DNA of 64,000 nt from Pseudomonadota bacterium (GCA_017464085.1 JAFUEE010000104.1:16226-80225); one strand, 5' to 3'. Numbered from the stretch's first letter, positions 4,653 to 27,924 are shown. The notes: generated by a model not told the origin, from the letters alone. A program made the numbers and translations.

Positions 4653-5495
4653 TTATTTTTCGAGTGCTTCTTCGAGCATGCTGACGAGCGATTCGACATC
4701 GAAGGTGCTCTGAATTTTGTGGCCGTTGAGGAAGAAGGTCGGCGTGGATTCGACGCCGTTCGTGAGGCCTTCCTTTTTGGCATCGACGACTGAGGCGCGC
4801 ACGGCGGCATCGCGCATGAGCGCGTCGAATTTTTGAGGGTCGGCGCCGATGCTTGCGGCCCATTCGTTCATTCTTTCGAGGGAGAAATCGTCAAAATTCT
4901 CGTAGGACTTGAGGAGGTAGGGCCACGCGAGGCCGAGTTTTGCAGCGGCTTCGACGGCGATGGCGGCCTGGCTTGAATTTTCGTGTGATTTGATCGGGAA
5001 GAGCCGGAGATTGACGGCAATCTTGTCTTTGAACGATGAGTTTTCGAGCGCGTGAATGAGCTTAGGGACGTGTTTCGAGCAGTAAGGGCAGCGTCCGCAT
5101 AGATAGACGGAGAGGACGACTTTTGCATTTGGATTTCCCCAGACGTGTTCGGGAGAAAGGGAGATTTTTGCGGGCGGCAGGATGGAGGCCATGACGAGTG
5201 CGCGCTGATCCAGCGCGTGCTTGATTTCTTCGGTTGTTTTTCCGGATTTAGCGAGCCTGCATGTTTCGTCCGCGAGGCGGCTCGCGAGTTTGCAGGGCTT
5301 TGCGGCCTGGAGGCATTTTTCGATTGTGTCGTCGCAGCAGTCATAGGGGTAGGCGGAGCGCATGACGCTCTGTGCCGTCGCTTTGGCATCTCCCGCGAGG
5401 GCATCGCATGCGGCAGTCTGGGCGACTGCTTGCGCGGAGAAGAGCATTGAGGCGGCGATTATCAAAGAGTTCAGGGATTTCATAGGCTTCACCAT
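4653..5495 (-). CDS. DsbA-family thiol:disulfide oxidoreductase (thioredoxin fold, CPYC active site) with signal peptide and a Cys-rich N-terminal extension
   Basis: N-terminus MKSLNSLIIAASMLFSAQAVA is signal-like. The CxxC motif sits within VYLCGRCPYCSKHVPKL. The C-terminus TPTFFLNGHKI is typical of DsbA-like proteins. An alternative start is at 5483. Confidence 0.75.
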   Translation of the reverse strand: MVKPMKSLNSLIIAASMLFSAQAVAQTAACDALAGDAKATAQSVMRSAYPYDCCDDTIEKCLQAAKPCKLASRLADETCRLAKSGKTTEEIKHALDQRALVMASILPPAKISLSPEHVWGNPNAKVVLSVYLCGRCPYCSKHVPKLIHALENSSFKDKIAVNLRLFPIKSHENSSQAAIAVEAAAKLGLAWPYLLKSYENFDDFSLERMNEWAASIGADPQKFDALMRDAAVRASVVDAKKEGLTNGVESTPTFFLNGHKIQSTFDVESLVSMLEEALEK

Positions 5496-5558
5496 CTGTG
5501 TCGGGGTATTGCCCGGAAAGTCAGGGCGATCAGATATTTAGCGAATCAGCGTGAAAAA

Positions 5559-8015
5559 TCAATTCTGGAGACAGGAAGAGGAGCGCTGCATGTCTTCGTC
5601 CTGCTGAATGATGTCGCGGATGCGGTCTGAGGCGCTCTGTCCGTCGAAGTCCCAAGGGAGTTCGTAGAAGGTGTCGGGTTTGCTGGCGGGATCATAGAAG
5701 TCGAGGTCGCCGGTCCATCGGACGGAGATCATGCCTCTGTAATCGTCGTAAGCGTAGTCAGGCGCGGTGCTCCAGCGTCTGCTGGCCTTGAACTGTGCGC
5801 CGACGCGGACGCCTGCCCAGGCAGGTGACCAGATCTGGAATGCGCCACGCGCAGTCGTGTCGCGCCGGAGGTCGCCGGATGTGAAATAATTCTGTGATTT
5901 TCCGTAATCGTCGTAGGATGCGGCGCCGCTGAGACGAAAAAGGATGTCGCGTTTGGGGATGCGGTAGTCGAGCGCGAGGCTGATGTTCGCGCCGTTGAGG
6001 TCGTACATGTCGCCGACGGAGAACCAGTGCCGGTAGGAAGCGCCCCAGGTGAGCGAGAGCCCTGCATAAAGGCTGTGCCTGCCGCCTGCGCCGATGTCGA
6101 GCTCATCCCTTGTGCGCACGCGTTGCCGAAAGGTCCTGTGGCCGTATCCGGCGAAGATATAGAGCCATTTGTGGATTTCCAGGTCAGCTTCGAGCCTGTG
6201 GCTTGTATAGAACATCAGGGGGCCGTTGTCGTATTTGTCATTTCCGAAGATGTAGAGCATTTCGGGGCGGTAGTAGGCGCCGAACTTGACTGGATCGAGC
6301 TGGAGGACGGTCCCGAGCCGCATAGATGTGTCGAGATAGCTGGAATCGGCGGCGTCTTTAGAGGTGAGCAGCTGTCCGGTGATCTGTCCTTCGAGGACAA
6401 TGCGCGCGAAAGCGGGGCTCCATGGATCGAGCCCGATGCGGAGATCGCCGTCCAGGAAGGGGCTTCCGAGAGATTTGTTCGTGAGCCTGGGATCGCTTGG
6501 GGAGCCGCTGAGCGCATTGGATGCATAGCCGCCGTCGATTTCGGCTTTCCAGGTAAAATTTGGGTCAGCGGAGAGGCCGTTGATCGAGCGCAGTGATTTG
6601 AGCGCCTGTTTGTCAGCGCGTGAAAGCTCGGGGGAAGCGTAGGCATTCTGGAGATGCCCGAGCGCGCTGTCTTTGTCGCTGCGCGCCATGTCGTTGAATG
6701 CGCGGACGAGCTCATGTTTGGCGGAATCTTTTGGCTGTTCGCACTGTGCGCCGTCGAGGATTCTGTCGGCTTCTTCGGGCATGGCCATCTGGATATAGGT
6801 CCATGCAGCCCATGCGCGCGTTTCGCAGTCTTGAGGATTCTGAGTGAGGAGCGCATTGAACGTTCTGAGCGCCCATGGATAGTTTTGCGCGCGCGCGTAT
6901 GCGATGCCGAGGGCGCGTTCGATTTCCGGGGAGCCGTCGCGGTTTTCCTTGAGGAGATCGACCGCGTCGCGCTGGAGGTCTGGGGAGTTCCAGAGCATCT
7001 GTGCTTCTTCGAGGGTCTGTAATCGTGCGGCCTCGAGCGCTTCAGGATCAGCGAGATTGAGCGAAGCGTCGGTCATGGTGTCGGTATCGCCATTGAGTTC
7101 CCATGCGAGCAGGATTTCGGAGCCGTCAAATATTCGGTCCTGCGGTGAGGCGTCCGTCTCAGGGAGGTTCTGGGACACGGGGACTTCCTCGATGAATTCG
7201 CCATCGCTGCAGCATCTGAAGCCGAGCGTGAGCGGCGTCCAGTTCATCGGGATATAGGTGCACTTGTGGTTGCCTTTGGTATCCGCGCAGTTGAACGCGC
7301 CGCCGCGGACTGTCATGCCGCTTCCGTTTGCGGTGTGTTCCCAGATGTTGCCGCTCAGGTCATAGACATCCCATGCGTTGACGCAGTCTTTGAAAGAGCC
7401 TGTGGGCATGAGGTGGAAGCCGTATCTGCCGTAAGTTTCGATGCCGTTGCAGGTCTGCGGATCATATTCATTTCCGTAAACATAGTCATAATTCTGTTCT
7501 CCGCGGCATGCATATTCCCATTCGGAGGGGGCGCATAGGCGTTTTCCAGCGGCATTGCAAGCGGCTTCAGCCGCGCTGTTGTTGTCTCCGATGTTCCAGG
7601 GCATGACGTTCGGGCGTGAGGTGGCGACGGAGCTGTCTGAGCCTGCGGAAGTCTCGGTCGCATCGGGCCGTGAGGCTTCATATTTGTCGATGCAGTAGGT
7701 GTCAGAGATTGCGGCCATGTCGTCCGGGCATGTGAAGACTTTGACGGGCGGTTTGGGATCTGGATTCGGATCAGGGTCGGGGTTCGGATCCGGTTCGGGT
7801 TTCGGATTGGGGTCGATGGTGCAGATGTGCGCCTGGCAGATGAAGTTTTTGCCGCAGTCTTGATCGATGATGCACCTGTACTGGCATTCGCCGAGTTCAT
7901 CGCAGAACATGGGGCTGATGCAGTCCTCATCGCGGTAACATCTCTGTTCGGGGCTGCAGGAAGCGAGCGTGGCAGCGCATAGTGTCAGGCTTATCAGATA
8001 GGGTGTCTTTGACAT
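5559..8015 (-). CDS. Lipoprotein with Cys-rich knot, PDPNPDP linker, FGE-sulfatase (SUMF1-like) domain, TPR-like helical region and a beta-strand-rich C-terminal domain
   Basis: Lipobox LASCS after a signal peptide. FGE hallmark segments are GNEYDPQTCNG, VYDLSGNIWEHT and RGGAFNC. The C-terminal 350 aa are rich in alternating aromatic, Gly, Arg and Asp residues, typical of a beta-barrel or beta-sandwich. Confidence 0.8.
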   Translation of the reverse strand: MSKTPYLISLTLCAATLASCSPEQRCYRDEDCISPMFCDELGECQYRCIIDQDCGKNFICQAHICTIDPNPKPEPDPNPDPDPNPDPKPPVKVFTCPDDMAAISDTYCIDKYEASRPDATETSAGSDSSVATSRPNVMPWNIGDNNSAAEAACNAAGKRLCAPSEWEYACRGEQNYDYVYGNEYDPQTCNGIETYGRYGFHLMPTGSFKDCVNAWDVYDLSGNIWEHTANGSGMTVRGGAFNCADTKGNHKCTYIPMNWTPLTLGFRCCSDGEFIEEVPVSQNLPETDASPQDRIFDGSEILLAWELNGDTDTMTDASLNLADPEALEAARLQTLEEAQMLWNSPDLQRDAVDLLKENRDGSPEIERALGIAYARAQNYPWALRTFNALLTQNPQDCETRAWAAWTYIQMAMPEEADRILDGAQCEQPKDSAKHELVRAFNDMARSDKDSALGHLQNAYASPELSRADKQALKSLRSINGLSADPNFTWKAEIDGGYASNALSGSPSDPRLTNKSLGSPFLDGDLRIGLDPWSPAFARIVLEGQITGQLLTSKDAADSSYLDTSMRLGTVLQLDPVKFGAYYRPEMLYIFGNDKYDNGPLMFYTSHRLEADLEIHKWLYIFAGYGHRTFRQRVRTRDELDIGAGGRHSLYAGLSLTWGASYRHWFSVGDMYDLNGANISLALDYRIPKRDILFRLSGAASYDDYGKSQNYFTSGDLRRDTTARGAFQIWSPAWAGVRVGAQFKASRRWSTAPDYAYDDYRGMISVRWTGDLDFYDPASKPDTFYELPWDFDGQSASDRIRDIIQQDEDMQRSSSCLQN

Positions 8016-8066
8016 GATTTCAACTGTTTTGGGGCGTATGTGATGCGAATTTTGGGGGAGAATAAA

Positions 8067-8903
8067 TCAGGCGTTCTGCACGGCCTGGATAAGCCTTGGC
8101 AGGAGCGGTTCAAATTTGACGCCGTACCAGTGCGCGTCATCGCCCTGAGTATGCTCGATGCATGCGACGGTGTAATCTGCGGCGATTTTGGCCGCATCGA
8201 ATGCGGACTTGCCTTGGAGGAGGGCGCCGACGAATGCGGATGCGTAGACATCGCCTGTGCCATGGCAGCCTTTGGCGATTTTGCGGTGTTCGTAATAGGA
8301 TGACTCCCCGTTTCCGACGACGACAACGCCTGTTTTGTCAGGGGCATAGCCGACGCCTGTGAGGATGACGTTTTTGGCGCCGCTTTTGAGGAGCGCTTTT
8401 GCCAGCGCGTCAATATAGTCGCGGTCGTAGTGCTCGCGGTATTCGATGCCGGTGAGGAAGCATGCCTCGGTGATGTTGGGGAGGATGAAATCCGCAGAGG
8501 AAGCGAGTTTTTTCATGGCCTCGACATAGGCGGTATCGAAAGCGGGGTATAGCTTGCCGTAATCGGCCATGGCGGGATCGACGATGACGGGGGCGTCTTT
8601 TTTGAGGAGTGTCCGTATGATGTCGAGCACGAGGTCGATCTGATGCGTGCTGCCGAGATAGCCGGTATAGATGGCGTCAAAGGTGATTTTTTCTTTGAGC
8701 CAGTGTGCGGCGATTGCGGGGATGTCATCCGTGAGGTCCCGGCATGTGAAGCCGGAAAATCCCGCAGTATGCGTGGACAGGACAGCGGAGGGGAGGATGG
8801 CAGTCTCGAGCCCGCAGGCGGACAGGATGGGGAGTGCGACAGTGAGCGAGCACTGTCCGACGCATGAGATATCTTGGATTGTCAGTATTTTGGCGTAGGG
8901 CAT
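8067..8903 (-). CDS. pdxK: Pyridoxal/pyridoxamine kinase (ribokinase superfamily)
   Basis: Motifs VDPAMAD and GTGD are present and the overall length is 278 aa. An RBS AGGAA lies 7 nt before ATG 8903. Confidence 0.85.
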   Translation of the reverse strand: MPYAKILTIQDISCVGQCSLTVALPILSACGLETAILPSAVLSTHTAGFSGFTCRDLTDDIPAIAAHWLKEKITFDAIYTGYLGSTHQIDLVLDIIRTLLKKDAPVIVDPAMADYGKLYPAFDTAYVEAMKKLASSADFILPNITEACFLTGIEYREHYDRDYIDALAKALLKSGAKNVILTGVGYAPDKTGVVVVGNGESSYYEHRKIAKGCHGTGDVYASAFVGALLQGKSAFDAAKIAADYTVACIEHTQGDDAHWYGVKFEPLLPRLIQAVQNA

Positions 8904-9314
8904 AGCGAAATTCCTGGAATTTTAATGATATGCATAGCTCTGAAAGCGTATCCAGAGCAGACCGGTTTTATTCCAAACAGGTATATGATTCAAGCATTCG
9001 CGCGCGGCATCCTGGACTATTGTGTGAGGTTTTATGAAATATGAAACGTCGAGGGGGTAGCGGCGTATTTCGCAGAAATAGCCGCGCAGGGGGAGTCTTC
9101 CCCCCCCATACAAAAAAGAAAAGTTATCAAGCGTAACCCGTGAAGGGCCGGCCGGAGCGAGTTTAAGTCCGTGAGATAAGGCGCTTGTGCGTGCAAGAAA
9201 ACTGAATGTTGTGAGTCGGTATGGGGCAATAAAAAATTGTTCGCTCTTGAATTATGATGGTTTGCGAGTAAAAGGGTGAGACGGAGTGCTGTTTATGGGC
9301 TGTCAGGAGGTGTT
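8904..9314. promoter_or_regulatory. Divergent promoter region between pdxK (-) and the Cys-rich lipoprotein gene (+); contains REP-like element A3
   Basis: 411-bp non-coding gap with AT-rich segments (ttgaattatgatggtttgcgagtaaaag). An AGGAGG RBS sits at 9305..9310. Confidence 0.35.
9051..9107 (-). repeat. REP-like element subfamily A copy A3 (reverse orientation)
   Basis: gagggggtagcggcgtatttcgcagaaatagccgcgcagggggagtcttccccc is the exact reverse complement of the A1 core. Confidence 0.85.
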
Positions 9315-12300
9315 ATGCGACGGTTGGGATTATGTCTTGCGTGTTGTTTGGTCTTGAATGCCTGTTCGGAAGCGGAGCTGACATGCGCGGATAATACCCG
9401 TAAATGTACGGATGACCATCAAGGAATCCTTCGTTGCGTGGGCGGTGCCTGGGAATGGGCGGAGATGTGCTATAATGACACCGTGTGCGATGACAACAAG
9501 TTTATCTGTGTCCAGGATCCGGATGCGTGCGTGGAAGGGGCGCGCAGATGTTCGAACGACCTGCGGAGGGTGGAAGTCTGCATGGGTGGCAGCTGGGCTC
9601 AGGAACGTGAGTGTTCCGGGACTGAATATTGCGATTCGAACCAGCTCGCGTGCATCACGCCTACGAGCGCTCCGGCTTGTGTCCCGGGAAGTTTTCAGTG
9701 TGTCAACAATGTGATCATGCGCTGCGAGGGCATGGGATGGTCACAGTTTCAGACATGCGCATCGCCTCTGAGGTGCGATGCAGCGAGCGGGACTTGCGTG
9801 AGGGATCAGGAATGCTCTCCGGGTACGAAAAAATGCGATGAGGATCTGAGCCGCACGCTGGTGTGCGCGGATGGCTTCTGGACGCTCGGTCAGTCGTGCG
9901 ATGGCGGGCAATGCGACCAGGCGACGATCGAATGCGCCGTGGGATGTACAGAAGGGGATAAAAAGTGCAGCCCGGGGAAAGACAGCGTGCTCAAGTGCAG
10001 CGGCAATCAGTGGATTTCTGAACAGGCATGCGGCGCTTCGGCATATTGCAATGACCAGAAAGCAGCCTGCGTGGATTTGCCGGTCTGTGTCGAGCACTCG
10101 GCATCCTGCGACCTGAGCGGCGGAAGCGTGAAGGAATGCATCGATGGCAAGTGGCAGACGACGCCATGCACGTCAGGCAGGACGTGCGTGAACGGCAAAT
10201 GCATCGCGACCCTGACGAATGTATGCACGCTCGGGGTCACGGAATGCAAGGACAACAATATCGTCCGATGCGTCGGGGGCATCCCGGAGACGTCGTCGTG
10301 CGGCGATCAGGTCTGCATGGTCAGGGGCGGCAAAGCCGTATGTGAATCACATGTGTGCGATGACGGGGATTCGGCATGTGTATCCGCGACCAGGAAAAAG
10401 ACATGCGAGCAGAACGAATGGCGCGAGATTTCGTGCGGGAGCGGCTACCAGTGTGATGCCGGAAATGGGGAATGTGTCCTGACCGTGTGTACGGAAGGTG
10501 CGATGCGCTGTTCGAACAACGCTGCCGAGAAATGCGTCAATAATGCCTGGCAGGTCGTCAAGGCGTGCGGCTCGGACAACTGCGAGGTCAAGGGCGGGGT
10601 GGCGTCGTGCCAGACAGTCTCTTCGTGCCAGGCGGGGGCTAAGAAATGCAATGGCAATGTCGTGGAGACTTGTTCCGGCAATAAATACACGCAGAGCCAG
10701 GTGTGTGACAGCGCCACGCAGATCTGCAGCGCTTCGGGGACGAACGCTTCGTGTGTGGCGCGTGTCTGTACGGAAGGCGCGTACAAATGCGAAGGTTCGG
10801 CGCTGAAATTCTGCAAGGACAATGTGTGGGTGACCTCGCAGACGTGCTCGGGGGACAAGCCTCTGTGCGATGCGTCCAAGTCGGCCTGCGTGGCCAGGGT
10901 GTGCGAAGAAGGCGCGTTGAAGTGCAGCGGGACGGGCAAGAGCCTGATGGTCTGCAAGGGCAATGCCTGGAAGACGCAGACGGAGTGCTACAAGTCGGGC
11001 AGCACCTGTGTGGTCCGCGCCGGCAAGGCCGCCTGTGAGGCAAAGGTGTGCACGGATGGCGTGACCTGCACGGGCAATACGCTCCGAGTCTGCAGCGGCA
11101 ATGCCTATATCGTCGAGAATGCATGCCTGAACACGGAGACCTGCAGCGTGGAAAGCGCGTCCTGTGAAGCCAATCCCGAATGCGCGTCCGGGGAATATAA
11201 GTGCGAGGGCTCGACACTGTATATGTGCTCTCCGGCGCGTCAGTGGCAGTCGAAGAATACATGCGTGAGCCCGGAAATCTGCGACGCGTCGTCCAAAAAA
11301 TGCGTCGATACGTCGGTGTGCTCGGCCGGAAGCTATTACTGTGACGGCCAGGTGCTCAAAAAGTGTTCGGGCGGCCAGTGGGCGACCGAAGAGACTTGCG
11401 ATATCACATATAGTTGTAATGCGGACAAGAAGGCATGCGTCCTCAAGCCTGTCTGTACGGATGGCGAATACTCGTGCAATGGCAAGACGCCGAGGACTTG
11501 CCAGGGGGGCCAGTGGAAAGACGGCAATCCGTGTTCGGCATCGCAGACATGCAGCGCGTCGCTCAAAAAATGTGTCGAATGCGATGAAAATGATTTCCAG
11601 TGCAGCGGCCAGACGCTTCAGAAATGCGTCTCCGGTGCCTGGGTCACTCATGAAAATTGCTCGTCCGGGCAGACATGCAATGCCAATCTGGAGATGTGTG
11701 TCGAGTGCAGCGGTGACATCAGCCAGTGCAGCGGCCAGACACTGCTGTCGTGCGTGGATTACCACTGGAAGACCGAAAAGGAGTGCGACAATGCCAGTTA
11801 TTGCGATGCATCTCAGAAGAAATGCATCAAGAAAGACGTGTGCACAAATGGCGAATATGCATGCGTGAACAACAGCCTCAATATCTGTACCAATGGCCAG
11901 TGGCAGGAAAAAGAGTCATGCACGGCGGAGATGAATTGTGATGCAAACGCAAGGAAATGCGTGCTCAAGCCCGTCTGCATGCAAGGGGAGGCTGTGTGTG
12001 ACGGCAACAGCCTGAAGACATGTGATGCATCGGGGCAGTGGGCGGTCAATGACTGCGGCATGGATGCGCTCTGCGTGACCGCGAATGCGTCGGCGCAGTG
12101 TGTGTCCAAGATGACGCTGCCCACGTGGTGCAACACGCAGCATGTCAGGGATGACCGCGACCAGGGGTATGGGCGCGTGCTTCTGCCAGACGGCGTCAAG
12201 CCCGAAGATATTTCCGCGCATTTCGTGTGCGGCGATGTGCAGCATCCGGTCAGTTCCTGGACATACGGCAGTGCGGCTGTATATAACAAGGATTGCGATG

Positions 12301-12959: not shown

Positions 12960-12963
12960 TTTT

Positions 12964-13042
12964 CCATGCCTTGCGCTTTCGGCGCTACGGCATGGCTCGC
13001 CTGCTATCGCCTTTGGCGATACGCGGCGCTTGTTTTTTTGAT
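12964..13042 (+). terminator. Hairpin cluster and T-run 3' of the Cys-rich lipoprotein gene; includes REP-like hairpin C1 tatcgcctttggcgata
   Basis: ccatgcc...ggcatgg inverted repeat encloses gcgctttcggcgc. This is followed by tatcgcctttggcgata and then cttgttttttt. Confidence 0.45.
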
Positions 13043-13107
13043 GCCGATGCATCTGCTGTCGGCTCAGTTCGATGGCCTCATAGGCCGCTTTTTTGTGGGA
13101 TATAACG

Positions 13108-13788: not shown

Positions 13789-13927
13789 CAGGTAGACTGG
13801 ATGCATGTCGTTCTGGCGGCGATGATTGGCGCTTGACGATTTTGTACAGTCTGTATAGTAATTAAGTTGCTATTTTTAAGAACTGAATCATCCTGATGAG
13901 GATGAATAAGTAATTGAAGGCTGTAAA

Positions 13928-16246: not shown

Positions 16247-16265
16247 GTATCATTGAGCTCTTTAT

Positions 16266-16526: not shown

Positions 16527-16588
16527 AAAAAAAGGGCGGCTGAGTGCCGCCCTGTGCGTTAATTGGCTTTAGAGAGCTCTATACGGGC

Positions 16589-19500: not shown

Positions 19501-22500
19501 TAGGCGGCATATCCTTGACGACAATCTGAATCGTCTCAGGGATCATATTGCCCTCATCGTTGTGGATATTCGGGTACATGACGCTGAGATTGTACGTCGT
19601 CTGCTTCGATCCGGATTTGAAAATGATCGTGGCGATGCCGTTTCTGTCGGTCGGTGATGTCTCGGCATTGAGGGAAGCATCCGCGCCGTCATTGCCTTTG
19701 AGTTTCCAGATGAGCTTGTCGCGGACAGGCGTAATTTCATTGCCATTCTTCCAGACGATCTTGGCTTGGTAATTGATCGTTTCGCCAAGTCCCACGTTTT
19801 CCTGAGGGGAGAGGAAGATAAGGCTCAGGCAGCCCTGTTTGCCTTGCGGACCGGAGGTGTTGAACGCTTCTTTGCAGCATGCCTCCGCAGAATTCTCATC
19901 ACAGTTCTTGAATGTGTTGTCGGAGCATGTGGCGCTGCAAGCGCTTCCCTGATGATATTTGGGGTTGGTGCTGTAACCGTTTACAGTATCGAGGTACTCT
20001 CCGGCGCAGCTCTTGTAGGTTTTGTCGTTCGCATTGCAGGTTTCTGCTTTGCTGCTCGTGGTGCAGGGCTCGACGCATTTTTCCCCATCGAGCTTGGTGC
20101 AGCAGAAATCGCCGTTTTCATTTGTCGTATCGCCATCTGGCAGGTCGACATCGTTGGGGTTGACGCCCGGTATTGTGCCGGTATTGTTCGTGATGGTGAT
20201 CGTGAAGATGAACGGAATGGGTTTCTTTGTCTCTTCATCGATATAATTGGGATGGAAGACACTGACATAATAGAGCGAATTATATCCGGTGCCCGTATAG
20301 AAATAATTGCTTGCAACGCCCTTGGAGTTTGTCACGATCATCGTGTCGTTGAGCGTGGCATTGTTGTTGACGGACTTGCCGCGTGAAATTTTCCAATAAG
20401 TTTTGGTGTCGGCAACGAGCGTCTTGTACTGGTTGTCTTTGATGACTTTGACCTTGAGGTCAAGCGTCTTGACGACCGGTGCGCTGAGGATTTGCTCGAA
20501 CGCGCTGACGTCGTCGGGGAGGACGAGCTTGACATTGCCGAGGTTCGGATCGTAATTCGGCATGCCTCCGGGCGGGATGAGCGCGTCATCTTTATTGGCC
20601 TTGTCGCCTTCGGCAGTAGGCACGCTGAAAGAATTGTTCACAGCGATGACGATCGTGGCTGCTTTTGCATCCTTGTTGACCAGCGTGATCATGTAGGTCG
20701 CATCATAAGCGGTGCCCGCCCAGAACGTGAACTTGGTGTCTTTATTGGCATCGCTGCTCGTGCTGAAGGTGATCTCCGTGTCGGTGTTGCCTTCGGCATC
20801 AAAGGCGCCGTTATTGGAGGGCAGGGAGCCTTTCGTCAGCTTGGCTGTGACATCGAGCGCCTTGAGCTTGCTCGTATCGTTTTTTGAAACGGCGCGCACA
20901 AAAATATCCTGTGTCGTGCTGATGCCGATCGAGAGCTTCTTGCAGGAGCCGTATTCATCCTTTTTGTCATATTTGCATCTGAAGATATAGTCACTGCCGC
21001 AAACTTCATAAAGGCAGGGATCCGGGGCGACATCGGAAGTGCCGTCGCCATCCACGTCAAAGCCGCCGTTATAGAATTCGCTCGAGCAGGAACATTCTCC
21101 GTCCTTCATGGCATCGCATTCGGCTTCCGACACTTTGTTGCCATTCTTGTCCTTGCATGTGACGACTTCGTTGATGACGACATGGATATCATCCGCAATG
21201 CCGTCGCCGTCCACATCCGCCTGAACTTTCTTGCCGTCGCAGGTTTTCAGATCCCACGTGCCGTTGTCGTTTTTCTCAAGCTTGCAGTGGAAGGCGGCAT
21301 TGGGGTCGCAGTCTTTGCCGCTCTGATTTTTGGCAGCATCAGACGTAAAGTCACCGCAGGCTTCGATGATCGATTTGACTGGTTCCGAGTCTTTGTCGAT
21401 CGGTTCGGGGAACATGCTGGCGAGAATCTGCGCGGCATTGCCGCCGTTGATCGTCTCTTTGCCTGTCTCCGAATCAGTCACGACGACATCGGGATCGGTG
21501 AGATCGACTGGGATCTTGATATCATCATTGATGATCACGGCCGGATCGCCCGGCTCTCCGAGCGTGTCGGGAAGCGCGAAGGTGTCGATCTGGTAGGTCA
21601 GGGGGTTGGCGACCTTATGGAAGAAATTGAGGAAATAACGGGCATTGTAAGCCATGCTCGTGTTGATTTCAACCCAGAATTCGCCATTTGCATTGGGATG
21701 GCCGCATGCCACGGCCTTGCCGGTCGCGCTGTCGCCATCCGCTTTATAAGGCTTCTGTCCGGAGGCGTTCTTTTCGCTGACTTCATCGTTGTCAAAGTAG
21801 GATGTGACAAAGCCTGTGTTCGTCGTTGTCGTTTCGACAAAGCTGAAACAGATGGTTTCCTTGGTAAGGTCGCAGGCTGTTTTGGCGTCGTCACCCGTTT
21901 CAGCGCCTGATGCGGCGCATTTGCCATCCAGGCGCACGCCGAGTTTTTTGCTGAAATCGGCATAGAGCTGCTGGTCAAGGCTGTCGAGGTTGACCAGGGC
22001 GGCTTCCGTCATCTTTGTCTCTGCATCGTTAATCTCGCTTGGCACGGTCAGGTCATTTTCGACATCTTTTGTGCCGAGCGTGCAGTCGCTCATTTTGGGA
22101 ATCGTCCGGACATTGATCTCTGCAGAAGCTGGATCGCTGGCATCCGCTGCCCAGAAGTTCAGATAATACATCGGGTTCTTTGAGCTGTACATCGAACCTG
22201 TCTGTACGCGTACAGTGAACGAGCCCTTCTGAACGCCTTTGGGCTTGGAAATGACGGCCATCGAGTCTGTCGGCGGAAACTCCTCTGCATCATAGAGGTC
22301 GCCGGAATCGACGATCAGGCTGCCGTTTGCGCCAGGGGCGCGCTCAAGCGTGATGACGAAGCGAGGCTCTTTCGAGGCGCCCGTCAGCATGCCGTCAAAA
22401 CTGACCTTGAACTCGACCATCTCGTTGATGTGGGCCGTTTCGGACTCGGGAGCGACGGAAAGCTCAAGTTCTTCAAAAACTCCGGAAGGGCCAAGCTCGG

Positions 22501-22711
22501 CCTTGCCCGGCTTGGATTTGGGATTGCTCGACAAGCCATCGCTTTCTACACCGAAAACAAAGGCGTCATTAGTGTCTTTTGGCGCATAACTCGCCCCGTT
22601 GGCGTCGATCGATTCGCCGCGTCTGGAATGTATCTCCTCTGAGTTCGCACATCCAAACAGGGTTGCAAACCATAGGAATAACAATCCTTTGGTGAGTGTT
22701 GATCTTTTCAT
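16589..22711 (-). CDS. Giant cell-surface lipoprotein (~2040 aa) with Cys-rich regions, thrombospondin-type-3-like Ca-binding motifs and a KPEEQ-repeat C-terminal tail
   Basis: AGGAGA RBS 6 nt before ATG 22711. Signal and lipobox are LFGCANS. DVDGDGIADD and DVDGDGTSDV are Ca-binding loops. A 15-bp repeat lies at the 3' end. Confidence 0.85.
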   Translation of the reverse strand: MKRSTLTKGLLFLWFATLFGCANSEEIHSRRGESIDANGASYAPKDTNDAFVFGVESDGLSSNPKSKPGKAELGPSGVFEELELSVAPESETAHINEMVEFKVSFDGMLTGASKEPRFVITLERAPGANGSLIVDSGDLYDAEEFPPTDSMAVISKPKGVQKGSFTVRVQTGSMYSSKNPMYYLNFWAADASDPASAEINVRTIPKMSDCTLGTKDVENDLTVPSEINDAETKMTEAALVNLDSLDQQLYADFSKKLGVRLDGKCAASGAETGDDAKTACDLTKETICFSFVETTTTNTGFVTSYFDNDEVSEKNASGQKPYKADGDSATGKAVACGHPNANGEFWVEINTSMAYNARYFLNFFHKVANPLTYQIDTFALPDTLGEPGDPAVIINDDIKIPVDLTDPDVVVTDSETGKETINGGNAAQILASMFPEPIDKDSEPVKSIIEACGDFTSDAAKNQSGKDCDPNAAFHCKLEKNDNGTWDLKTCDGKKVQADVDGDGIADDIHVVINEVVTCKDKNGNKVSEAECDAMKDGECSCSSEFYNGGFDVDGDGTSDVAPDPCLYEVCGSDYIFRCKYDKKDEYGSCKKLSIGISTTQDIFVRAVSKNDTSKLKALDVTAKLTKGSLPSNNGAFDAEGNTDTEITFSTSSDANKDTKFTFWAGTAYDATYMITLVNKDAKAATIVIAVNNSFSVPTAEGDKANKDDALIPPGGMPNYDPNLGNVKLVLPDDVSAFEQILSAPVVKTLDLKVKVIKDNQYKTLVADTKTYWKISRGKSVNNNATLNDTMIVTNSKGVASNYFYTGTGYNSLYYVSVFHPNYIDEETKKPIPFIFTITITNNTGTIPGVNPNDVDLPDGDTTNENGDFCCTKLDGEKCVEPCTTSSKAETCNANDKTYKSCAGEYLDTVNGYSTNPKYHQGSACSATCSDNTFKNCDENSAEACCKEAFNTSGPQGKQGCLSLIFLSPQENVGLGETINYQAKIVWKNGNEITPVRDKLIWKLKGNDGADASLNAETSPTDRNGIATIIFKSGSKQTTYNLSVMYPNIHNDEGNMIPETIQIVVKDMPPTPSVTEINHIKLEADGTNVQKLAYNGVSYYILSSDDHSCSENFLVANESSRKTNCLKAEPQDSLHICDLEKVTEAGDNKYYPKELILDNHKDKYIVFAVGDSGSSPLVFGCSAMNRFGSPTTPNTCDDSERLTTCKNSQKDKDGKCKCAPVRRMDVKVLLSEIPLSFAESYKTESLFDLGPLMKDGSKVKESIDKIMTKYEEFLDADPAKKVMEELDTYVFFDGDNTNTTKCVENSQKKNKCMPSDGSNVSKLESICEINSGQKYKDCFDDKGKEDKDCLKKLYTKCDCTCAKFYYYTHINSIGKKIAPLARKGIKSLLDKYLSADAIAEQLCKVFDSVQYLTLTGDLTLEKDGNSGKFKGSAKYNGALIPFTGDKKLELPGNIVEGKWTEAKLTNGIDQLAITKFSLNLTYGEFIYQVIGKFIGAIDDSGNLSFANILDCSKLGNISLPLLGSVDLSTFCELSLNWLSGQTVSFAVSKYASLNLTLDGTGEFQRGKLCVAPAAGIGCVAQQIVKGSWTGTGSLGETKADGKKPEDTIGGAWIAYKDENDKPTMELSGGKSLDEFKAKNSVCRKVLKEAKEGAQIKDHTNQACLGGSFSDPSSWAKNNRCDKTGCQGAGVVVCTEEGKFNTEYAGATATQIILSANNECKKNCEAFTTCGDPTCDLNSEIINNGYGVTNEECLTHCKDKACQDNDTIVVCSGGSAVESWDVNICEKPVDQSAPLSDEDSAKCFEAQVKTACKGKCDSPVCLMNKELKGCTDETDKPAPTPTSLPELLASWSTFDQYWNKDTKKSSPIDKADIKPDTDSKNAAAAKFVFSCESAKLKIVAGEDGVVGALGTDLAVGGKDKCHFSLTTKTDAFEITKIELSVFGDGRTIVINDKKNATKEGEWLKLTLDPVAENNIWPIIVNDKGIEDTNATDEGYKMMRLDNIKVYGIDKAQNNDDKKDDQKPEEQKPEEQKPEEQKPGGE
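16592..16650 (-). repeat. 15-bp in-frame tandem repeat x4 (KPEEQ) at the 3' end of the giant lipoprotein gene
   Basis: caggcttctgctcct is repeated 4 times. Confidence 0.8.
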
Positions 22712-22850
22712 ATAGCCTCTCCTTGCACTCGTGTTAAAAAAGGCAAAAAACAAGTCAGATTCTACGATTTTTGCGCTTTTCTGGCAAGTGAGTTACTATA
22801 TTTTGTTTACATGTATTTCAAGCCTGAGAGAATTTTGGCTTTTTTGTGGA

Positions 22851-22911
22851 GGGGGAAGACTCCCCCTGCGCGGCTATTCCTTGCCGGGGCAAGGAATACG
22901 CCGCTACCCCC
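22851..22911 (+). repeat. REP-like element subfamily A copy A4 (variant inner hairpin tattccttgccggggcaaggaata)
   Basis: It shares the gggggaagactccccctgcgcggc...tacgccgctaccccc frame with A1 and A5. The inner stem-loop is replaced by a longer perfect palindrome. Confidence 0.8.
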
Positions 22912-22936
22912 ACTCGAATCGGATGCGCGTCGTCGG

Positions 22937-24136: not shown

Positions 24137-24426
24137 ATTGCACTTCCTTGATGAGCGAGTCACGCCAGGCTTCTGCTGACTTGAAACACTCTATAATAAA
24201 TTGGGGCGTTTGACCAGTAAACTGACGCGCATACCATGTGTAAGGTATCTGAATTGTCTCGCTCTGAATGATAATACAGGGGAGATATTTCAGGATAACT
24301 TGAAAATGACTTGATTTGTTCGAGTGATTTGTTAATTGATGCAAAGATATTTGGGTTAATTCTTTCGGTCTGCTTTGGCGGATCTGTCCTGTTCTGCGAG
24401 TGCAGAGTTTTTTATATGGAGGAGAA

Positions 24427-27400
24427 ATGAGACATTCCAGACAATTCAGCGTGCTTGCGCTGTGTGCCATGGCCGCTCTCGGATTTGGCGTGACATCATG
24501 CGATGATGAGGCCGCGTCCGTGACCAGGAGCAAGCTCAATGAGACGTGTAGCCAGGACAAGCCCTGCGAAGAAGGGCTCGTTTGCGGTGACGAAGGCAAA
24601 TGTGTCGAAGAGGCTGGCCAGGAACCCGAGGATAAGGCCGGGCTCGGGGAGGATTGTGGCGAGGAAAAAGCCTGCGAAGAAGGGCTCGTTTGCGGCGATG
24701 AGGGCAAGTGCGTCAACAAAAATGACCAGCCTGCCGAGCCGGATCCCGGCAATATCAATACTGATCCCTGCAAGACAGCCAATTGCCCGGATGGCACGGC
24801 TTGTCTGGATGGCCGGTGCTATGACGAGGCATGCATCACCAATGGCAGTCTCAAGACTTGCGATGGCGGACAGATGTGCGTCAAAGGGGAATGTGTCGAT
24901 GATGGCTGCCAGGACAAGACATGCGATGAAGGTGAAATCTGCTCCAAGGGTATCTGCGAGGATGCGCTGTGCTTGCAAGGTGCGATTATCTGCAATGAAG
25001 GTTCGACTTGTGTCAAAGGCAATTGCATTGACAATGCCTGCCTGAGCAAAACTTGTGATACCGGGCTCACCTGCGTCAAAGGGGATTGTGTCTTTCCGGC
25101 TTGTGTCGGAAAAGAGGCATGCACGGGCGGCAAGGTCTGCAATGCATCCGGGGAGTGCGTGTATGAAGTCTCCCCTGAGCTTTTGGTACAGGCGGATGAC
25201 AAAGAAACGGACGAATATGGCGATACTGCATCAGTCAGCCTTTCGCTCAATCACCCGCCTGTTGCAGATGTGACGCTCGAATGCGAGATCGCCTCTGAAA
25301 GCCCGGTTCCAGAGGCTGAGGTCAACTGCAGCGGCATCCTGTTTAATGCTGCCAACTATAGCGAGCCCCAGGGCGTTACGGTTATCGGGCTTGCAGACAA
25401 CAAGATTGATTCTGATCAGAAATTTAAGCTCACGATGACCACGCGGTCTGAAGATCCAGACTTTAACGGGCTTGTCCAGAGCCTTGATATGGTCAACAAA
25501 AACGTCGACACAGTCGGTGTAAAGCTCAGCGATACCAATCTTCTGACGACTGAAAATGGCGGTACGGCTGTGTTCAGCGTCTCTCTGATCACCAAGCCGG
25601 CTGCGGATGTGACAATCACCATCGCGTCGAGCAATCCTCAATATGGGATAATCGATGGCGCGGAAGAGAATGTCCTCACGGTGACATTTACCCCGGAAGA
25701 CTGGGAAACTCCGAAAGAGATCACGATCAAAGGCGTCGATGACGATGCGCCTAACGGCGATGAAGGTCATAACTATCAGATCACGTTTACCGTCGCTTCT
25801 GAAGATGTCGATTACAACGGGATCGAGGTCAAGCCGATTTCAGTGGTCAACCTCGACAACGATGTCCACGATGTCTTTTTTGACAAGAATGCGATTGAGA
25901 CGCTTGAAGGCGGTGCCCCTGTCAGCGTCACGGCGCGCTTGGGGCTGGAGCCTGTGGGACAGGTCAAGATCGGCCTCAAAGTCATGAACGGCGAAAACGA
26001 AGCCGAGATTGCAGGCGAAAAAGAAATCGTTATCGACAAGTCCAATTACAAGGAAGGCGTTGCGTTTTCAGTTCAAGGTCTCGTGGACAACAAGATTGAC
26101 GGCGATAAGGATTATCAGGTCAGGGTTCGCATCAATTCAAACGATGACGATGCATACGAGGGCTTGGATGACAAGTTCATACCGGGCAAGAATATCGACA
26201 CGGACAAGGCGGATCTGCGGCTGAGCTATACGAGCACGCTTGTCACTGAGGCCGGTTCGACGATTGATATCGGAGTGTCTCTGATGTCTATCCCGACGGC
26301 CCCTGTGACTGTCCGCGTGAAGTCGACCAATGACGATGAGATGCGGGTCTCTCCGTCTGAATTTGAGTTCACGGCTGAGAATTGGAATGTGCCGCAGACG
26401 GTGACCGTGACCGGCCAGGACGATGTCATTGATGACGGCGATCAGATTTCTCAGGCGGTCTTCAGCATCTTTACGGATGATAAGGATTATGCTGCGCTCG
26501 AAGATATCAACCTCGATATCACGACGCAGGATAACGATACGGCCGAGATTGTTGTGGTTTCAGCAGGTCGCGACATTCGCGAAGATTCGCGGGAGACTGT
26601 CGAATTCAAAGTCGTCCTCGGCGCACAGCCTCAGGATGGAAAGGTCATTGTCCGTGCGACTTCGAGCGATGAGTCGGAACTCAAGCTTCTCGGCAATGAT
26701 ACAGTTTCATTCGACAAAGATAACTGGAATACGCCTCAGTCCTTTGTGCTCCAGGTGCAGGATGATAACTATGCCGATGGCACGCAGGTCGTTCATGTCG
26801 ATCTCGAGAGCGCATCTTCCGATACGCTTTTCAACGGCCTTCATGCGCAGACTGAAAATTATAACATTCTTGACAACGAATCCGCGAGCGTCACGCTGAC
26901 GGCAGCCAAAACGCTGTTCAAGCCGGGCGATCAGTACACCACACCCGTGACAGTCGCGCTGAGCGCGCCGCCTATGGAAGATGTCACGGTTACAATCAAT
27001 ACGACGAATGCGACGACGGCCTCTCTCGACAAGACATCGCTCGTCTTTACGACATCGAACTGGAATACGCCGCAGACGATCAATATGACAAACAAAGACC
27101 CGCAGGCGGCTTCAGCCGCGAAGACGATCGAGACGCTCTCGGCGGTCACAACCGGCAAAGGGTCATATAACAATCTGAAGAGCAATGAAGTCAAGCTGAC
27201 GATGTATGCCTTCATCAGCAAGGAATTTTCGTACACGGGGAATGTCCAGCAGATCGACCTCCTGCCCGGCAACTATCGCCTCCAGGTCTGGGGCGCACGC
27301 GGTGGCAATGATACCTATGCTGGTGCGAATGGCGGTTATGCCGTTGGCGTGTATAAGAAAAACGACAAGAAGCCGCTCTATGTGTATGTAGGCGGTCAGG

Positions 27401-27924
27401 GTTCTGCGTGTGCGACGAATGCAGGCGGCGGCTGGAATGGCGGCGGCAATGCAGGCGCGATCGGGTGTTCTGGAGGTGGCGGTGGCGCGACGGATATCCG
27501 TACTGTCGGCGGCGCTTGGAATCTGGCGGCATCGCTTGATTCGAGAATCATTGTCGCCGGCGGCGGCGGCGGTGGCGGCAATACGACTTCGACATGTGTC
27601 GGCGGTGTCGGTGGCGGCACGAATGGTGGCGGCAGCGGCGTTGAAAAGCAGCAGGGCAAAGGCGGCACGCAGACGGCTGGCTATGCCAAAGGCCAAGGCG
27701 GGCATCCCGCTCAGGATGGCGGCGGCGGCGGCGGCGGCTACTGGGGCGGCTACGGCAGTGCGGGCTATGACGACGGCGGTGGCGGTGGTTCCGGCTATGT
27801 GTCGCCGATCCTCACGAGCGCATCGACGACTGCGGGCAATGCTGCGTTCCCGAACACGGCAGGTTCTGGCAATGAAACCGGCCACGCGACCAGCGGCTAT
27901 GCCAAAATCACGCTGATCGACTGA
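24427..27924 (+). CDS. Secreted lipoprotein: Cys-rich EGF-like N-terminal modules, about 7 Calx-beta-like ~105-aa repeats, and a C-terminal glycine-rich (ALK/LTK-type Gly_rich-like) domain
   Basis: Signal and lipobox are GFGVTSC. The motif CEEGLVCGDEGKCV repeats. Each repeated domain ends with a V-x-G-x-DD...DGD...Y-x-G signature. The C-terminus has GGGGGGN and GGGGGGGY runs between conserved blocks (YRLQVWGARGG...YVYVGGQG). Confidence 0.8.
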   Translation: MRHSRQFSVLALCAMAALGFGVTSCDDEAASVTRSKLNETCSQDKPCEEGLVCGDEGKCVEEAGQEPEDKAGLGEDCGEEKACEEGLVCGDEGKCVNKNDQPAEPDPGNINTDPCKTANCPDGTACLDGRCYDEACITNGSLKTCDGGQMCVKGECVDDGCQDKTCDEGEICSKGICEDALCLQGAIICNEGSTCVKGNCIDNACLSKTCDTGLTCVKGDCVFPACVGKEACTGGKVCNASGECVYEVSPELLVQADDKETDEYGDTASVSLSLNHPPVADVTLECEIASESPVPEAEVNCSGILFNAANYSEPQGVTVIGLADNKIDSDQKFKLTMTTRSEDPDFNGLVQSLDMVNKNVDTVGVKLSDTNLLTTENGGTAVFSVSLITKPAADVTITIASSNPQYGIIDGAEENVLTVTFTPEDWETPKEITIKGVDDDAPNGDEGHNYQITFTVASEDVDYNGIEVKPISVVNLDNDVHDVFFDKNAIETLEGGAPVSVTARLGLEPVGQVKIGLKVMNGENEAEIAGEKEIVIDKSNYKEGVAFSVQGLVDNKIDGDKDYQVRVRINSNDDDAYEGLDDKFIPGKNIDTDKADLRLSYTSTLVTEAGSTIDIGVSLMSIPTAPVTVRVKSTNDDEMRVSPSEFEFTAENWNVPQTVTVTGQDDVIDDGDQISQAVFSIFTDDKDYAALEDINLDITTQDNDTAEIVVVSAGRDIREDSRETVEFKVVLGAQPQDGKVIVRATSSDESELKLLGNDTVSFDKDNWNTPQSFVLQVQDDNYADGTQVVHVDLESASSDTLFNGLHAQTENYNILDNESASVTLTAAKTLFKPGDQYTTPVTVALSAPPMEDVTVTINTTNATTASLDKTSLVFTTSNWNTPQTINMTNKDPQAASAAKTIETLSAVTTGKGSYNNLKSNEVKLTMYAFISKEFSYTGNVQQIDLLPGNYRLQVWGARGGNDTYAGANGGYAVGVYKKNDKKPLYVYVGGQGSACATNAGGGWNGGGNAGAIGCSGGGGGATDIRTVGGAWNLAASLDSRIIVAGGGGGGGNTTSTCVGGVGGGTNGGGSGVEKQQGKGGTQTAGYAKGQGGHPAQDGGGGGGGYWGGYGSAGYDDGGGGGSGYVSPILTSASTTAGNAAFPNTAGSGNETGHATSGYAKITLID

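Follow-up and report, generated by a model that had tools for sequence, protein, structure and literature searches.

A DsbA-like protein with a six-Cys N-terminal domain as a predicted core periplasmic disulfide catalyst of a lineage with giant Cys-rich lipoproteins

The minus-strand gene at 4653-5495 of the window, a 64,000-nt stretch of DNA in which the ORFs were re-derived and compared with the coordinates of an earlier sequence-only reading, encodes a DsbA-like protein. With a probability of about 0.55, this protein is a core, lineage-wide periplasmic disulfide catalyst rather than an accessory of an island. Since MauE proteins can take the place of DsbB, it is most likely the predicted MauE-pathway periplasmic oxidase of the lineage. 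MauE would re-oxidise the DsbA domain and pass the electrons to quinone, and the DsbA domain would then put disulfides into exported proteins generally. The clients may include an FGE/TPR-barrel partner and the numerous Cys-rich lipoproteins of these genomes. The giant Cys-rich proteins encoded nearby are conserved orthologues, and that they lie so near the DsbA gene reflects an arrangement at the genus level.

Anatomy of the DsbA-like protein and its family

4653..5495, minus strand: DsbA-family periplasmic thiol-disulfide oxidoreductase, 280 aa with 9 Cys; Sec signal peptide at residues 1-26 (5418-5495)
5172..5417, minus strand: N-terminal six-Cys helical domain, residues 27-108, with a CcmH-like fold
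4656..5171, minus strand: DsbA/BdbD-type catalytic domain, residues 109-280, with C133-x-R-C136-P-Y-C139 (5079-5099) and a cis-Pro loop

The protein matches the Pfam families Thioredoxin_4 (PF13462; 68.7 bits, cut-off 23.2) and DSBA (PF01323; 31.7 bits, cut-off 25.6). Profile matches in the PDB are confined to query positions ~108-278, and the catalytic domain has a thioredoxin fold with an inserted helical domain. The cis-Pro loop T251-P252-T253 is invariant in 20 sequences and conserved in at least 90% of 93 sequences. The Cys-rich N-terminal extension of ~80 aa, noticed in the sequence-only reading, is real and unusual. Its C30, C53, C54, C61 and C79 are invariant and its C68 occurs in at least 90% of sequences; across 93 homologues down to ~38% identity, these six Cys and the CxRCP[YF]C site are fully or almost fully conserved, and C136-P-Y-C139 of the active site is invariant. 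The six-Cys extension is restricted to this DsbA architecture, and its family comprises at least 120 sequence clusters. The domain holds no CXXC, and a CC-x6-C cluster takes the equivalent loop. The six Cys are most simply read as structural disulfides, with participation in a redox relay being possible.

The extension had been proposed as an adaptation to the neighbouring giants. However, the same Cys recur in the 93 homologues, including those of loci L006 and L008, where no Cys-rich giants lie nearby, and the family is far broader than that of the 2054-aa giant (251 matches vs. 34). Thus, the extension is not specific to these neighbours.

Cys-rich exported proteins of the window

9276..12959, plus strand: 20-module six-Cys lipoprotein, 1227 aa (first GTG) or 1214 aa (start as called), 136 Cys
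16589..22753, minus strand: giant lipoprotein, 2054 aa (first start) or 2035-2040 aa (later starts), 72 Cys in clusters, lipobox LFGC
24400..27924, plus strand: GRD lipoprotein, 1174 aa (first start) or 1166 aa (a later start), 39 Cys
58658..62128, minus strand: GLUG-repeat lipoprotein (Pfam Glug), 103 Cys, with a Cys-rich N-terminal half of 700 aa
62499-64000, minus strand: GLUG paralogue reaching past the window end; its upstream part also reads as Cys-rich in a frame check

The exported ORFs named in the sequence-only reading were all recovered at the coordinates given there, with lipoprotein or Sec signals and a Cys content far exceeding that found elsewhere in the window (for example, 136 in 1227 aa). 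Against a background of 1.19% Cys in the other 21 ORFs, the four largest Cys-rich ORFs have binomial tail probabilities of 5e-84, 3e-15, 2e-8 and 5e-55, and heavy disulfide formation in these exported proteins is plausible, as had been suggested. The host is a gut Myxococcota-like bacterium whose small, gut-associated genome abounds in Cys-rich lipoproteins overall.

In the 1227-aa protein, 120 of the 136 Cys sit in exactly 20 tandem six-Cys modules of ~45 aa (9384-12113) with the pattern C-x2-G-x3-C-x6-9-C-x2-G-x-W-x5-C-x5-C-x5-7-C, followed by two C-terminal six-Cys domains of ~140 aa (12114-12956). The module is absent from all other window proteins. Syntenic orthologues share only 48-51% identity with it and differ in the numbers of copies and modules, with two copies in locus L009 and a 978-aa protein in L013.

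The giant lipoprotein at 16589..22753 has near-full-length homologues of ~1640-2300 aa in 34 clusters. No known domain was found in it, and none of the 34 clusters carries a Pfam domain. The TSP3 calcium loops attributed to it come down to two DxDGDG motifs (residues 513 and 566), and Pfam TSP_3 does not match even at E<=10. Its orthologue in L013 is syntenic and 76% identical, the gene is tandemly duplicated in L014 and L015 and lies elsewhere there, and the distant orthologues occupy another conserved neighbourhood.

The GRD lipoprotein, 78% identical and syntenic in L013, combines four-Cys modules (24499-25158) with divergent repeats of a beta-sandwich-like kind and an ALK/LTK glycine-rich domain at its C-terminus (27250-27918; Pfam ALK_LTK_GRD, E=5.7e-33), with 34 of its 39 Cys within residues 22-253. 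The sole profile match of its Cys modules, earlier called EGF-like, is a sub-threshold one to DUF7107. The GLUG protein at 58658..62128, whose gene lies ~30 kb from the DsbA gene with housekeeping genes in between, matches the NCBIfam MXAN_6577-like Cys-rich model (NF041328) at 4e-11.

The FGE/TPR-barrel lipoprotein upstream of the DsbA gene

8067..8903, minus strand: pyridoxal/HMP kinase (pdxK-like), housekeeping; Pfam Phos_pyr_kin
5559..8015, minus strand: FGE lipoprotein, 818 aa, 24 Cys, lipobox LASC
7821-7958, minus strand: Cys knot of the FGE lipoprotein, followed by a Pro-rich linker
7200-7733, minus strand: FGE-like domain
6582-7046, minus strand: TPR domain
5703-6557, minus strand: 14-strand beta-barrel, followed by a C-terminal tail carrying the conserved Cys815

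The pdxK, FGE and DsbA genes are co-directional with gaps of 51 and 63 bp. No minus-strand terminator-like site was found between them, and one promoter-like site lies upstream of the run (8925-8954). The pdxK-like protein is 82-88% identical in L009 and L013, and the FGE lipoprotein is a conserved neighbour of the DsbA gene in six loci (L001, L003, L008, L009, L011 and L012).

Nine more Cys (26-65) stand right behind the lipobox Cys20 of the FGE lipoprotein. The Pfam FGE-sulfatase match (48.8 bits) covers only profile positions 100-191 of 255, the best PDB match of the domain is the inactive paralogue pFGE (1y4j), and alignments to active FGEs end short of the catalytic region; a C243-x8-C252 pair is conserved. 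The AF2 model (pLDDT 83) has the TPR domain and 14 strands. Foldseek matched the barrel with BcsC, PelBC, OmpG and CymA, with TM-scores to BcsC, PelB and OmpG of just 0.3-0.38, and the 50 best PDB hits listed include no Slam structure. Cys397 and Cys425 of the TPR domain are invariant, Cys815 is nearly so, and a conserved helix behind the barrel terminates in SSSC. Relatives within the FGE family are often fused to MopE copper-binding domains (PF11617).

The redox cassette in relatives

In most relatives, the DsbA gene closes a cassette for an FGE-like lipoprotein, a TPR/14-strand outer-membrane barrel, a rhodanese-like membrane protein, MauE/DoxX and DsbA. The MauE and rhodanese genes lie directly upstream of the DsbA gene in L002, L003, L006, L008, L011 and L012. 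The relatives' MauE proteins score 81-92 bits in Pfam, and K28, E61 and an S-C-G-C-F motif are invariant in them, as seen in L002, L006, L008, L011 and L012. These features agree with those of the MauE proteins that experimentally replace DsbB; MauE, an analogue of DsbB linked to quinone, has CGC at its active site, and its active form has a CGC/CXC-F motif, a TM1 Lys and a TM2 Glu (bioRxiv 10.64898/2026.03.05.709764). In the rhodanese-like protein, the canonical active-site loop reads VYGDG without Cys, and the Cys of a VPCPE motif is invariant instead. The DoxX-type proteins weakly match the model of HvfX, which belongs to the maturation of a Cu-binding RiPP (a ribosomally made, modified peptide).

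At the DsbA locus of the window's own clade there is neither a rhodanese nor a MauE gene. Searches with tblastn and Pfam found no MauE, rhodanese, DsbB or VKOR-like gene in the 64-kb window, where no tblastn match of the six rhodanese and MauE queries was below E 0.075, and none lies in the ~5 kb examined to its left on the same contig (140 kb in all). Thus, the proposed re-oxidant of this clade would have to be encoded elsewhere. In three of ~8 independent lineages (the window's clade, L007 and L011), very Cys-rich proteins are encoded no more than 10 kb from the cassette. The tight and deep conservation of the DsbA gene with the FGE-like and TPR-barrel genes suggests a job more specialised than general housekeeping, and further DsbA paralogues may be encoded elsewhere in the genome.

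Gene order and alternative explanations

In the sequence-only reading, the extension adapts the DsbA-like protein as a dedicated oxidase to the neighbouring giants, and the 25 kb as a whole form an accessory surface-ome island. The DsbA gene is indeed physically close to the genes of four Cys-rich exported proteins, the Cys-module protein evolves fast with a variable copy number, as island surface proteins often do, and one three-gene indel (MBOAT, a 309-aa protein and Wzy_C) separates L013 from the window. However, the GC content is flat (0.51-0.58 throughout), the window holds no tRNA gene, and a Pfam scan of the 29 largest ORFs found no mobility gene. The pdxK, rpe and SgmX-like genes are interleaved with the giant Cys-rich lipoprotein genes on alternating strands, and neighbouring giants occupy at least four separate transcription units. 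Comparison with relatives, proposed as a way to delimit the island, showed the gene order of the window to be conserved, the first of two findings that the sequence-only reading had named together as refuting it: L009 keeps the genes for the LysM-lysozyme, NTP-transferase, DsbA, FGE, PdxK and Cys-module proteins, and L013, with the one three-gene insertion, keeps those for the GRD protein, a 399-aa protein, the giant, the SgmX-like protein, Rpe, the Cys-module protein, PdxK and FGE. The orthologous proteins of these two loci, housekeeping neighbours among them, are 75-96% identical to those of the window. In GCA_045599245.1 the giant orthologue and the DsbA gene are on different contigs, and the giants of distant relatives are located elsewhere. 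Synteny thus largely refutes the dedicated oxidase and its island, and together with the breadth of the extension family makes them very improbable.

Another explanation takes the five-part cassette as one specialised trans-envelope machine, in which MauE, the rhodanese-like protein and DsbA would serve the FGE-like lipoprotein and a barrel that could work as a translocon of the Slam or BcsC type, maturing or exporting one class of cargo, perhaps a glycan or the Cys-rich lipoproteins of the surface. Whether fused or split, the genes of the FGE-like protein and the TPR barrel accompany those of the trio down to ~41% DsbA identity, a TPR domain with a 14-strand barrel is a Slam-type architecture, the barrel protein has its invariant TPR Cys and nearly invariant tail Cys, and lipoproteins are numerous among the neighbours. 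However, SlipAM (PF04575) is touched by just three of 22 barrel family members and far below threshold (best E 0.048), the TM-scores are low, and family members also occur on their own, with no cassette, in L007 and at the P0060 locus, leaving this machine a tentative possibility. A reductive, isomerase or stress role is less probable still: the protein would act like ScsC in copper stress, or like a CcmG-CcmH relay, which holds CXXCH or other motifs in the reduced state, and the CcmH-like domain would be a second redox site. ScsC-type reductases and isomerases share the CPYC dipeptide and a CcmH-like domain is known from a reductive pathway, so that the oxidising direction of the core catalyst is a prediction. 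The N-domain places its CC-x6-C cluster where CcmH has LRCxxC; the MopE fusions and the HvfX-like matches also point this way. Against it, the adjacent membrane partner in relatives is MauE, an oxidase, not a reductant donor of the DsbD, ScsB or CcdA type, the N-domain has no CXXC, its CcmH match is below the Pfam threshold with an hhalign probability of 14.6%, and the loci retrieved showed neither cytochrome c maturation genes nor genes for copper resistance. Similarly unlikely, in our estimate, is the boldest combination, an undescribed oxidative-folding and export machine across the envelope of anaerobic gut Myxococcota-like bacteria. There, MauE would feed quinone, the CcmH-like/DsbA fusion would form a two-site disulfide relay aided by the atypical rhodanese-like membrane protein, and the FGE-like lipoprotein with its Slam-like barrel would pass oxidised Cys-rich giants to the cell surface.

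Comparison with known systems

Compared with DsbA, BdbD, ScsC and Com1-type proteins (PF13462, PF01323), the predicted core catalyst has an extra invariant Cys three residues before its active site (CxRCPYC) and a rigidly packed 80-aa six-Cys N-domain that no solved DsbA-family structure matches by sequence. The N-domain shares the three-helix bundle fold of the CcmH periplasmic domain (PDB 2hl7, 2kw0; PF03918). However, it lacks the LRCxxC carried by CcmH (PMC3884852), has six Cys instead of two, and is fused to a DsbA domain, not membrane-anchored. Pfam CcmH matches four of 32 N-domain family members below the gathering score (best E 0.0038), and a profile search of the PDB with the N-domain did not retrieve CcmH; since the matches fall under the usual thresholds, homology to CcmH is weak by sequence.

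The TPR-barrel protein shares an N-terminal TPR array and a C-terminal beta-barrel with Slam, BcsC, PelB and PgaA, and its 14 strands equal the count of Slam, OmpG and CymA. It differs in the fusion to a lipobox, Cys knot and FGE-like domain and in the post-barrel helix ending in SSSC, and it has no significant sequence match to the Slam, BcsC, PelB or PgaA families. The Cys-rich neighbours resemble the Myxococcota Cys-rich repeat lipoproteins (NF041328; DUF4215, PF13948, found in neighbours of the giant in L014) as large exported lipoproteins built of short disulfide-type modules, whereas the 45-aa module of the 1227-aa protein has no match in Pfam, NCBIfam or the PDB.

In the MauE pathway, MauE works with MauD or DsbA (bioRxiv 10.64898/2026.03.05.709764). 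In relatives, the DsbA gene likewise directly follows a MauE/DoxX gene with CGC-F, a TM1 Lys and a TM2 Glu, whereas the window's DsbA locus is without MauE. The relatives' cassette adds a membrane-anchored rhodanese-like protein without the usual catalytic Cys, an FGE-like lipoprotein and a TPR-barrel, partners that the MauE preprint does not mention. Both this cassette and the DoxX-SseA-SodA system of Mycobacterium tuberculosis pair a DoxX-family membrane protein with a rhodanese-domain protein. The latter system is a membrane oxidoreductase complex for thiol redox homeostasis, in which SseA is the rhodanese. Here, however, the rhodanese-like loop is without Cys (VYGDG), the Cys is found in VPCPE, and the third partner is DsbA in place of the superoxide dismutase SodA.

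Cys-rich exported proteins encoded in the window

All the Cys-rich ORFs named in the sequence-only reading were found in the window at the coordinates given there.

The DsbA-like gene and the Cys-rich ORFs of the window
4653-5495, minus strand: DsbA-like protein, 280 aa, 9 Cys
5559-8015, minus strand: FGE lipoprotein, 818 aa, 24 Cys, lipobox LASC
9276-12959, plus strand: six-Cys-module protein, 1227 aa, 136 Cys
16589-22753, minus strand: giant lipoprotein, 2054 aa, 72 Cys, lipobox LFGC
24400-27924, plus strand: ALK-GRD lipoprotein, 1174 aa, 39 Cys, 34 of the 39 within residues 22-253
58658-62128, minus strand: GLUG protein, 103 Cys

The Cys enrichment of these ORFs is far beyond chance. Compared with the mean Cys content of the other 21 large ORFs of the window (1.19%), the four largest Cys-rich ORFs gave binomial tails of 5e-84, 3e-15, 2e-8 and 5e-55. 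Since all the named ORFs exist and are strongly enriched, the earlier observation stands except for minor labels: what was labelled "TSP3 loops" in the 2054-aa protein comes down to two DxDGDG motifs that find no support in Pfam, and the "EGF" label reflects a resemblance at the motif level only.

The 1227-aa protein contains exactly 20 tandem modules of ~45 aa, which start after the lipobox, follow the pattern C-x2-G-x3-C-x6-9-C-x2-G-x-W-x5-C-x5-C-x5-7-C and are succeeded by two six-Cys domains of ~140 aa each. Among the window proteins, the HMM of the module matched only the 1227-aa protein itself. Searches of Pfam (up to E<=10), NCBIfam and PDB sequences returned no match for the 1227-aa and 2054-aa proteins. 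When the 1174-aa and 2054-aa proteins were compared with themselves by BLAST, no internal repeat reached 1e-3; the putative beta-sandwich repeats in the 1174-aa protein come from visual inspection. The C-terminus of the 1174-aa lipoprotein (window 27250-27918, plus strand) is an ALK/LTK glycine-rich domain covering the whole profile length (PF12810, E=5.7e-33), the polyglycine-rich fold of the ectodomains of the human ALK and LTK receptors. Long antisense ORFs of up to 472 aa inside 9276-12959 (e.g. window 10347-11765, minus strand) are most likely artefacts of the repetitive codon composition of the six-Cys-module gene rather than genes. One four-Cys motif, C-x5-C-x5-C-x4-C, is present in the DUF192 lipoprotein (window 28157-28804, plus strand). 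It belongs to the type seen in the Cys knots of the FGE and 1174-aa proteins, which suggests that this short motif is widespread among the exported proteins of the organism.

The DsbA-like protein and its N-domain

Residues 115-275 of the DsbA-like protein match the Pfam families Thioredoxin_4 and DSBA, both over threshold. The AlphaFold2 model, built from a 93-sequence alignment, has a pLDDT of 95 and a pTM of 0.88, the N-terminal part included. The homologue search retrieved 251 proteins, and nearly all members of the best 120 clusters are 260-320 aa long with at least 85% query coverage. The active site C133-x-R-C136 and C139 are invariant in the 93-sequence alignment, and the cis-Pro loop TPT is kept in at least 90% of the sequences. 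The ~80-aa N-domain (residues 27-108) is conserved to a similar degree, with C30, C53, C54, C61 and C79 invariant and C68 present in at least 90%. The N-terminal extension had been suggested to adapt the enzyme to its Cys-rich substrates; because its Cys are invariant or nearly so across the 93 homologues, it is a family-defining trait and not a peculiarity of the genome. The six Cys of the N-domain probably have a structural role.

Used by itself as the query against 1.8 billion representative proteins, the stretch of residues 27-108 yielded only 69 matches, essentially all of them within positions ~25-100 of proteins (or fragments of such proteins) that are ~280 aa long. The N-domain is not a mobile module. 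Pfam CcmH is the commonest family match of the N-domain sequences, yet it was hit by only 4 of 32 (best E 0.0038), and hhalign of the N-domain against two solved CcmH sequences gave a probability of 14.6% over 42 columns. Within the hhalign alignment, a G-K-[ST]-x-x-E-I helix is common to both, and the CC-x6-C cluster of the N-domain lies roughly at the position of the CcmH active site, although the N-domain has no CXXC motif. Because the sequence support is weak, the N-domain is called CcmH-like with respect to its fold only. A saposin-like fold was rejected, as the saposin C PDB profile matched at just E 0.17-0.3 over ~30 residues and the Cys spacing is unlike.

The closest genome matches to the DsbA-like protein are in two uncultured genomes, 'Proteobacteria bacterium RGIG7731' (75% identity; buffalo rectum) and 'Myxococcales bacterium UBA4248' (64%). 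The genus UBA4248 was recovered from pig faeces and has a ~3.1-Mb genome with 52% GC. One remoter member of the DsbA family carries the label Bradymonadales.

A conserved cassette around the DsbA gene

Two genes lie directly upstream of the DsbA gene in six loci of relatives, whose DsbA proteins are 64% (L002), 57% (L008), 45% (L011, Bradymonadales), 42% (L003 and L012) and 41% (L006) identical to that of the window. The first encodes a membrane-anchored rhodanese-like protein and the second a MauE/DoxX protein, each of ~160 aa. The TPR-barrel gene, and usually the gene of the FGE-like lipoprotein too, is located further upstream of this pair; the two genes are separate in some loci and joined into one in others, as they are in the window. 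Overlaps of a few bases are frequent between the cassette genes of the relatives. The deeply conserved neighbours of the DsbA gene are these cassette genes, not the giant proteins; the earlier view of an enzyme dedicated to its giant neighbours is not supported. In the window and in the loci of its closest relatives (L001, L009 and L010), the FGE gene adjoins the DsbA gene with a gap of 63-95 bp. No rhodanese-like or MauE gene was found in the 64-kb window by tblastn, or in the adjacent ~5 kb of the same 140-kb contig. Two other loci, L007 and P0060, contain family members without the cassette.

The MauE proteins of the relatives score 81-92 bits against Pfam MauE, with K28, E61 and S-C-G-C-F-A-S invariant. 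To our knowledge, none of the native thioredoxin-fold partners of MauE has been characterised so far. MauE was recently proposed as the second commonest bacterial DsbB-type enzyme: MauE from two phyla substitutes for DsbB in E. coli, its CXC motif is essential, and the Phe after the CXC, the TM1 Lys and the TM2 Glu are conserved near the predicted quinone site (bioRxiv 10.64898/2026.03.05.709764). With its distinctive, invariant extra domain and conserved envelope neighbours, the present DsbA subfamily is a concrete candidate partner, and MauE would be the protein that re-oxidizes it. The rhodanese-like proteins of the cassette differ from usual rhodaneses in having no Cys in the active-site loop, where V-Y-G-D-G is invariant instead; a V-P-C-P-E motif is invariant as well.

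Residues ~95-272 of the FGE lipoprotein partially match the FGE-sulfatase profile (positions 100-191 of 255) and contain a conserved C243-x8-C252 pair; the top PDB match of the domain is pFGE, a catalytically inactive paralogue. Residues 290-818, modelled using 22 homologues (pLDDT 83), are predicted to form a TPR array followed by a 14-strand beta-barrel, with a short helix at the C-terminus whose end is a conserved SSSC. Foldseek matches of this part are BcsC, PelBC, OmpG, CymA and PgaA, all at low TM-scores (0.3-0.38), and Pfam SlipAM (Slam family) made a weak contact in 3 of the 22 homologues (E of at least 0.048). These parts make up a TPR-barrel translocon architecture, for which no particular family is assigned. 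The acidic helix beyond the predicted barrel (window 5559-5700, minus strand; also L003 ~3740-3803) ends in R-x-S-S-C-x-x-N, and its Cys is nearly invariant across the 22 homologues. In the TPR domain, C397 and C425 are invariant.

Gene order in the window and in relatives

Checks of GC, tRNA and mobility genes revealed no island signatures in the window, which has a uniform composition (GC of 0.51-0.58 per 2-kb windows) and zero tRNA genes. The left side of the window is matched in L009 (DsbA 75% identical), where LysM/lysozyme, NTP-transferase, DsbA, FGE and PdxK occur in the same order, followed by the six-Cys-module protein as two divergent tandem copies of 48% identity. The right side is matched in L013 by the lipoprotein with the ALK/LTK glycine-rich domain (78% identity), the 399-aa protein (96%), the giant lipoprotein (76%), the SgmX-like TPR protein (68%), rpe (89%), the six-Cys-module protein (51%, 978 aa), PdxK (88%) and FGE (78%). 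The gene order of L013 is that of the window save one three-gene insertion (5694-9475), which separates the 399-aa protein from the giant lipoprotein and corresponds to window ~22754-22936. It encodes an MBOAT acyltransferase, a 309-aa protein and a Wzy_C O-antigen-ligase-like protein, all glycan-related, and is the only indel seen. The idea of an accessory island is not supported; what looked like an island with its own enzyme is a stretch of conserved core synteny.

In the giant and DsbA region, the genes alternate between the strands and form at least four units, with pdxK and rpe interleaved. The remainder of the window carries housekeeping genes (DnaB, PanB/C, RibA, PepP and an RND pump), and the GLUG Cys-rich proteins are ~30 kb off. 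The 2054-aa giant has its orthologue in another conserved neighbourhood (Ham1, DUF1266, GT5 glycosyltransferase and BatD) in remoter genomes, where it is sometimes duplicated and has DUF4215 Cys-rich proteins alongside. In GCA_045599245.1, this orthologue and the DsbA gene are on separate contigs. The giant orthologues of that genome (L014 10001-21067) are in tandem, with 1957 aa and 1568 aa and 38% and 33% identity to the window protein; two DUF4215 Cys-rich lipoproteins, each of >1000 aa, come before them. Very Cys-rich proteins are found near the cassette locus in L007 and L011 and not in L006 and L008; these lineages simply encode many of them.

Of all genes in this region, the most conserved encodes a 408-aa protein (window 22937-24163, minus strand; 96% identical in L013) between two giant lipoproteins; it has no Pfam or NCBIfam family, with DUF7893 reached at E 0.006 only. 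In the 976-aa protein (window 273-3203, minus strand), LysM occurs together with a phage-tail-lysozyme domain (PF18013, 3e-28), tandem 'APAQANNAPAEAP' repeats and a weak match to GDSL lipase. The protein, which may be a secreted enzyme degrading the cell wall, is conserved beside the DsbA locus of both L009 and L010. The first 290 residues of the TPR protein (window 13928-16246, plus strand) match the N-terminus of SgmX, a type IV pilus protein (NF052243, 1.4e-29), and ~13 tandem 'QRSQPGIPLT' repeats are located close to its C-terminus. By eye, the largest ORF (window 33451-41028, minus strand; 2525 aa) looks rich in repeats and helices; its N-terminal region is long and Pro/Ala/Glu-rich, and a signal peptide is not obvious.

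Discussion

The best-supported reading is that gene 4653-5495 is a core gene encoding the MauE-pathway periplasmic DsbA of this lineage. Its conserved functional neighbours would be MauE, the rhodanese-like protein and the FGE/TPR-barrel protein, and the gene would not owe its presence to the giant Cys-rich lipoproteins, which would be just some of many clients. The exported proteins of these animal-gut relatives of predatory Myxococcota are extraordinarily Cys-rich, one lipoprotein having up to 66 potential disulfides. This raises the question of what powers the formation of so many disulfides in an organism of a largely anoxic habitat.

The tightness of the cassette also leaves real room for a specialised function, in which its five proteins would form a trans-envelope machine. 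Some room exists for a reductive, isomerase or stress role of the DsbA, with which the CPYC site and the CcmH-like domain are consistent. In the preferred reading, a DsbA of the MauE pathway, the enzyme would act in the oxidase direction.

The profile libraries and literature searched yielded no description of a CcmH-like six-Cys domain fused to a DsbA domain, of the five-part cassette or of the 45-aa six-Cys module, and no literature was found that joins MauE, DoxX, DsbA and rhodanese, or a CcmH-like part and thioredoxin. The DsbA-family enzymes, MauE and the Cys-rich lipoproteins of Myxococcota are themselves of already known kinds.
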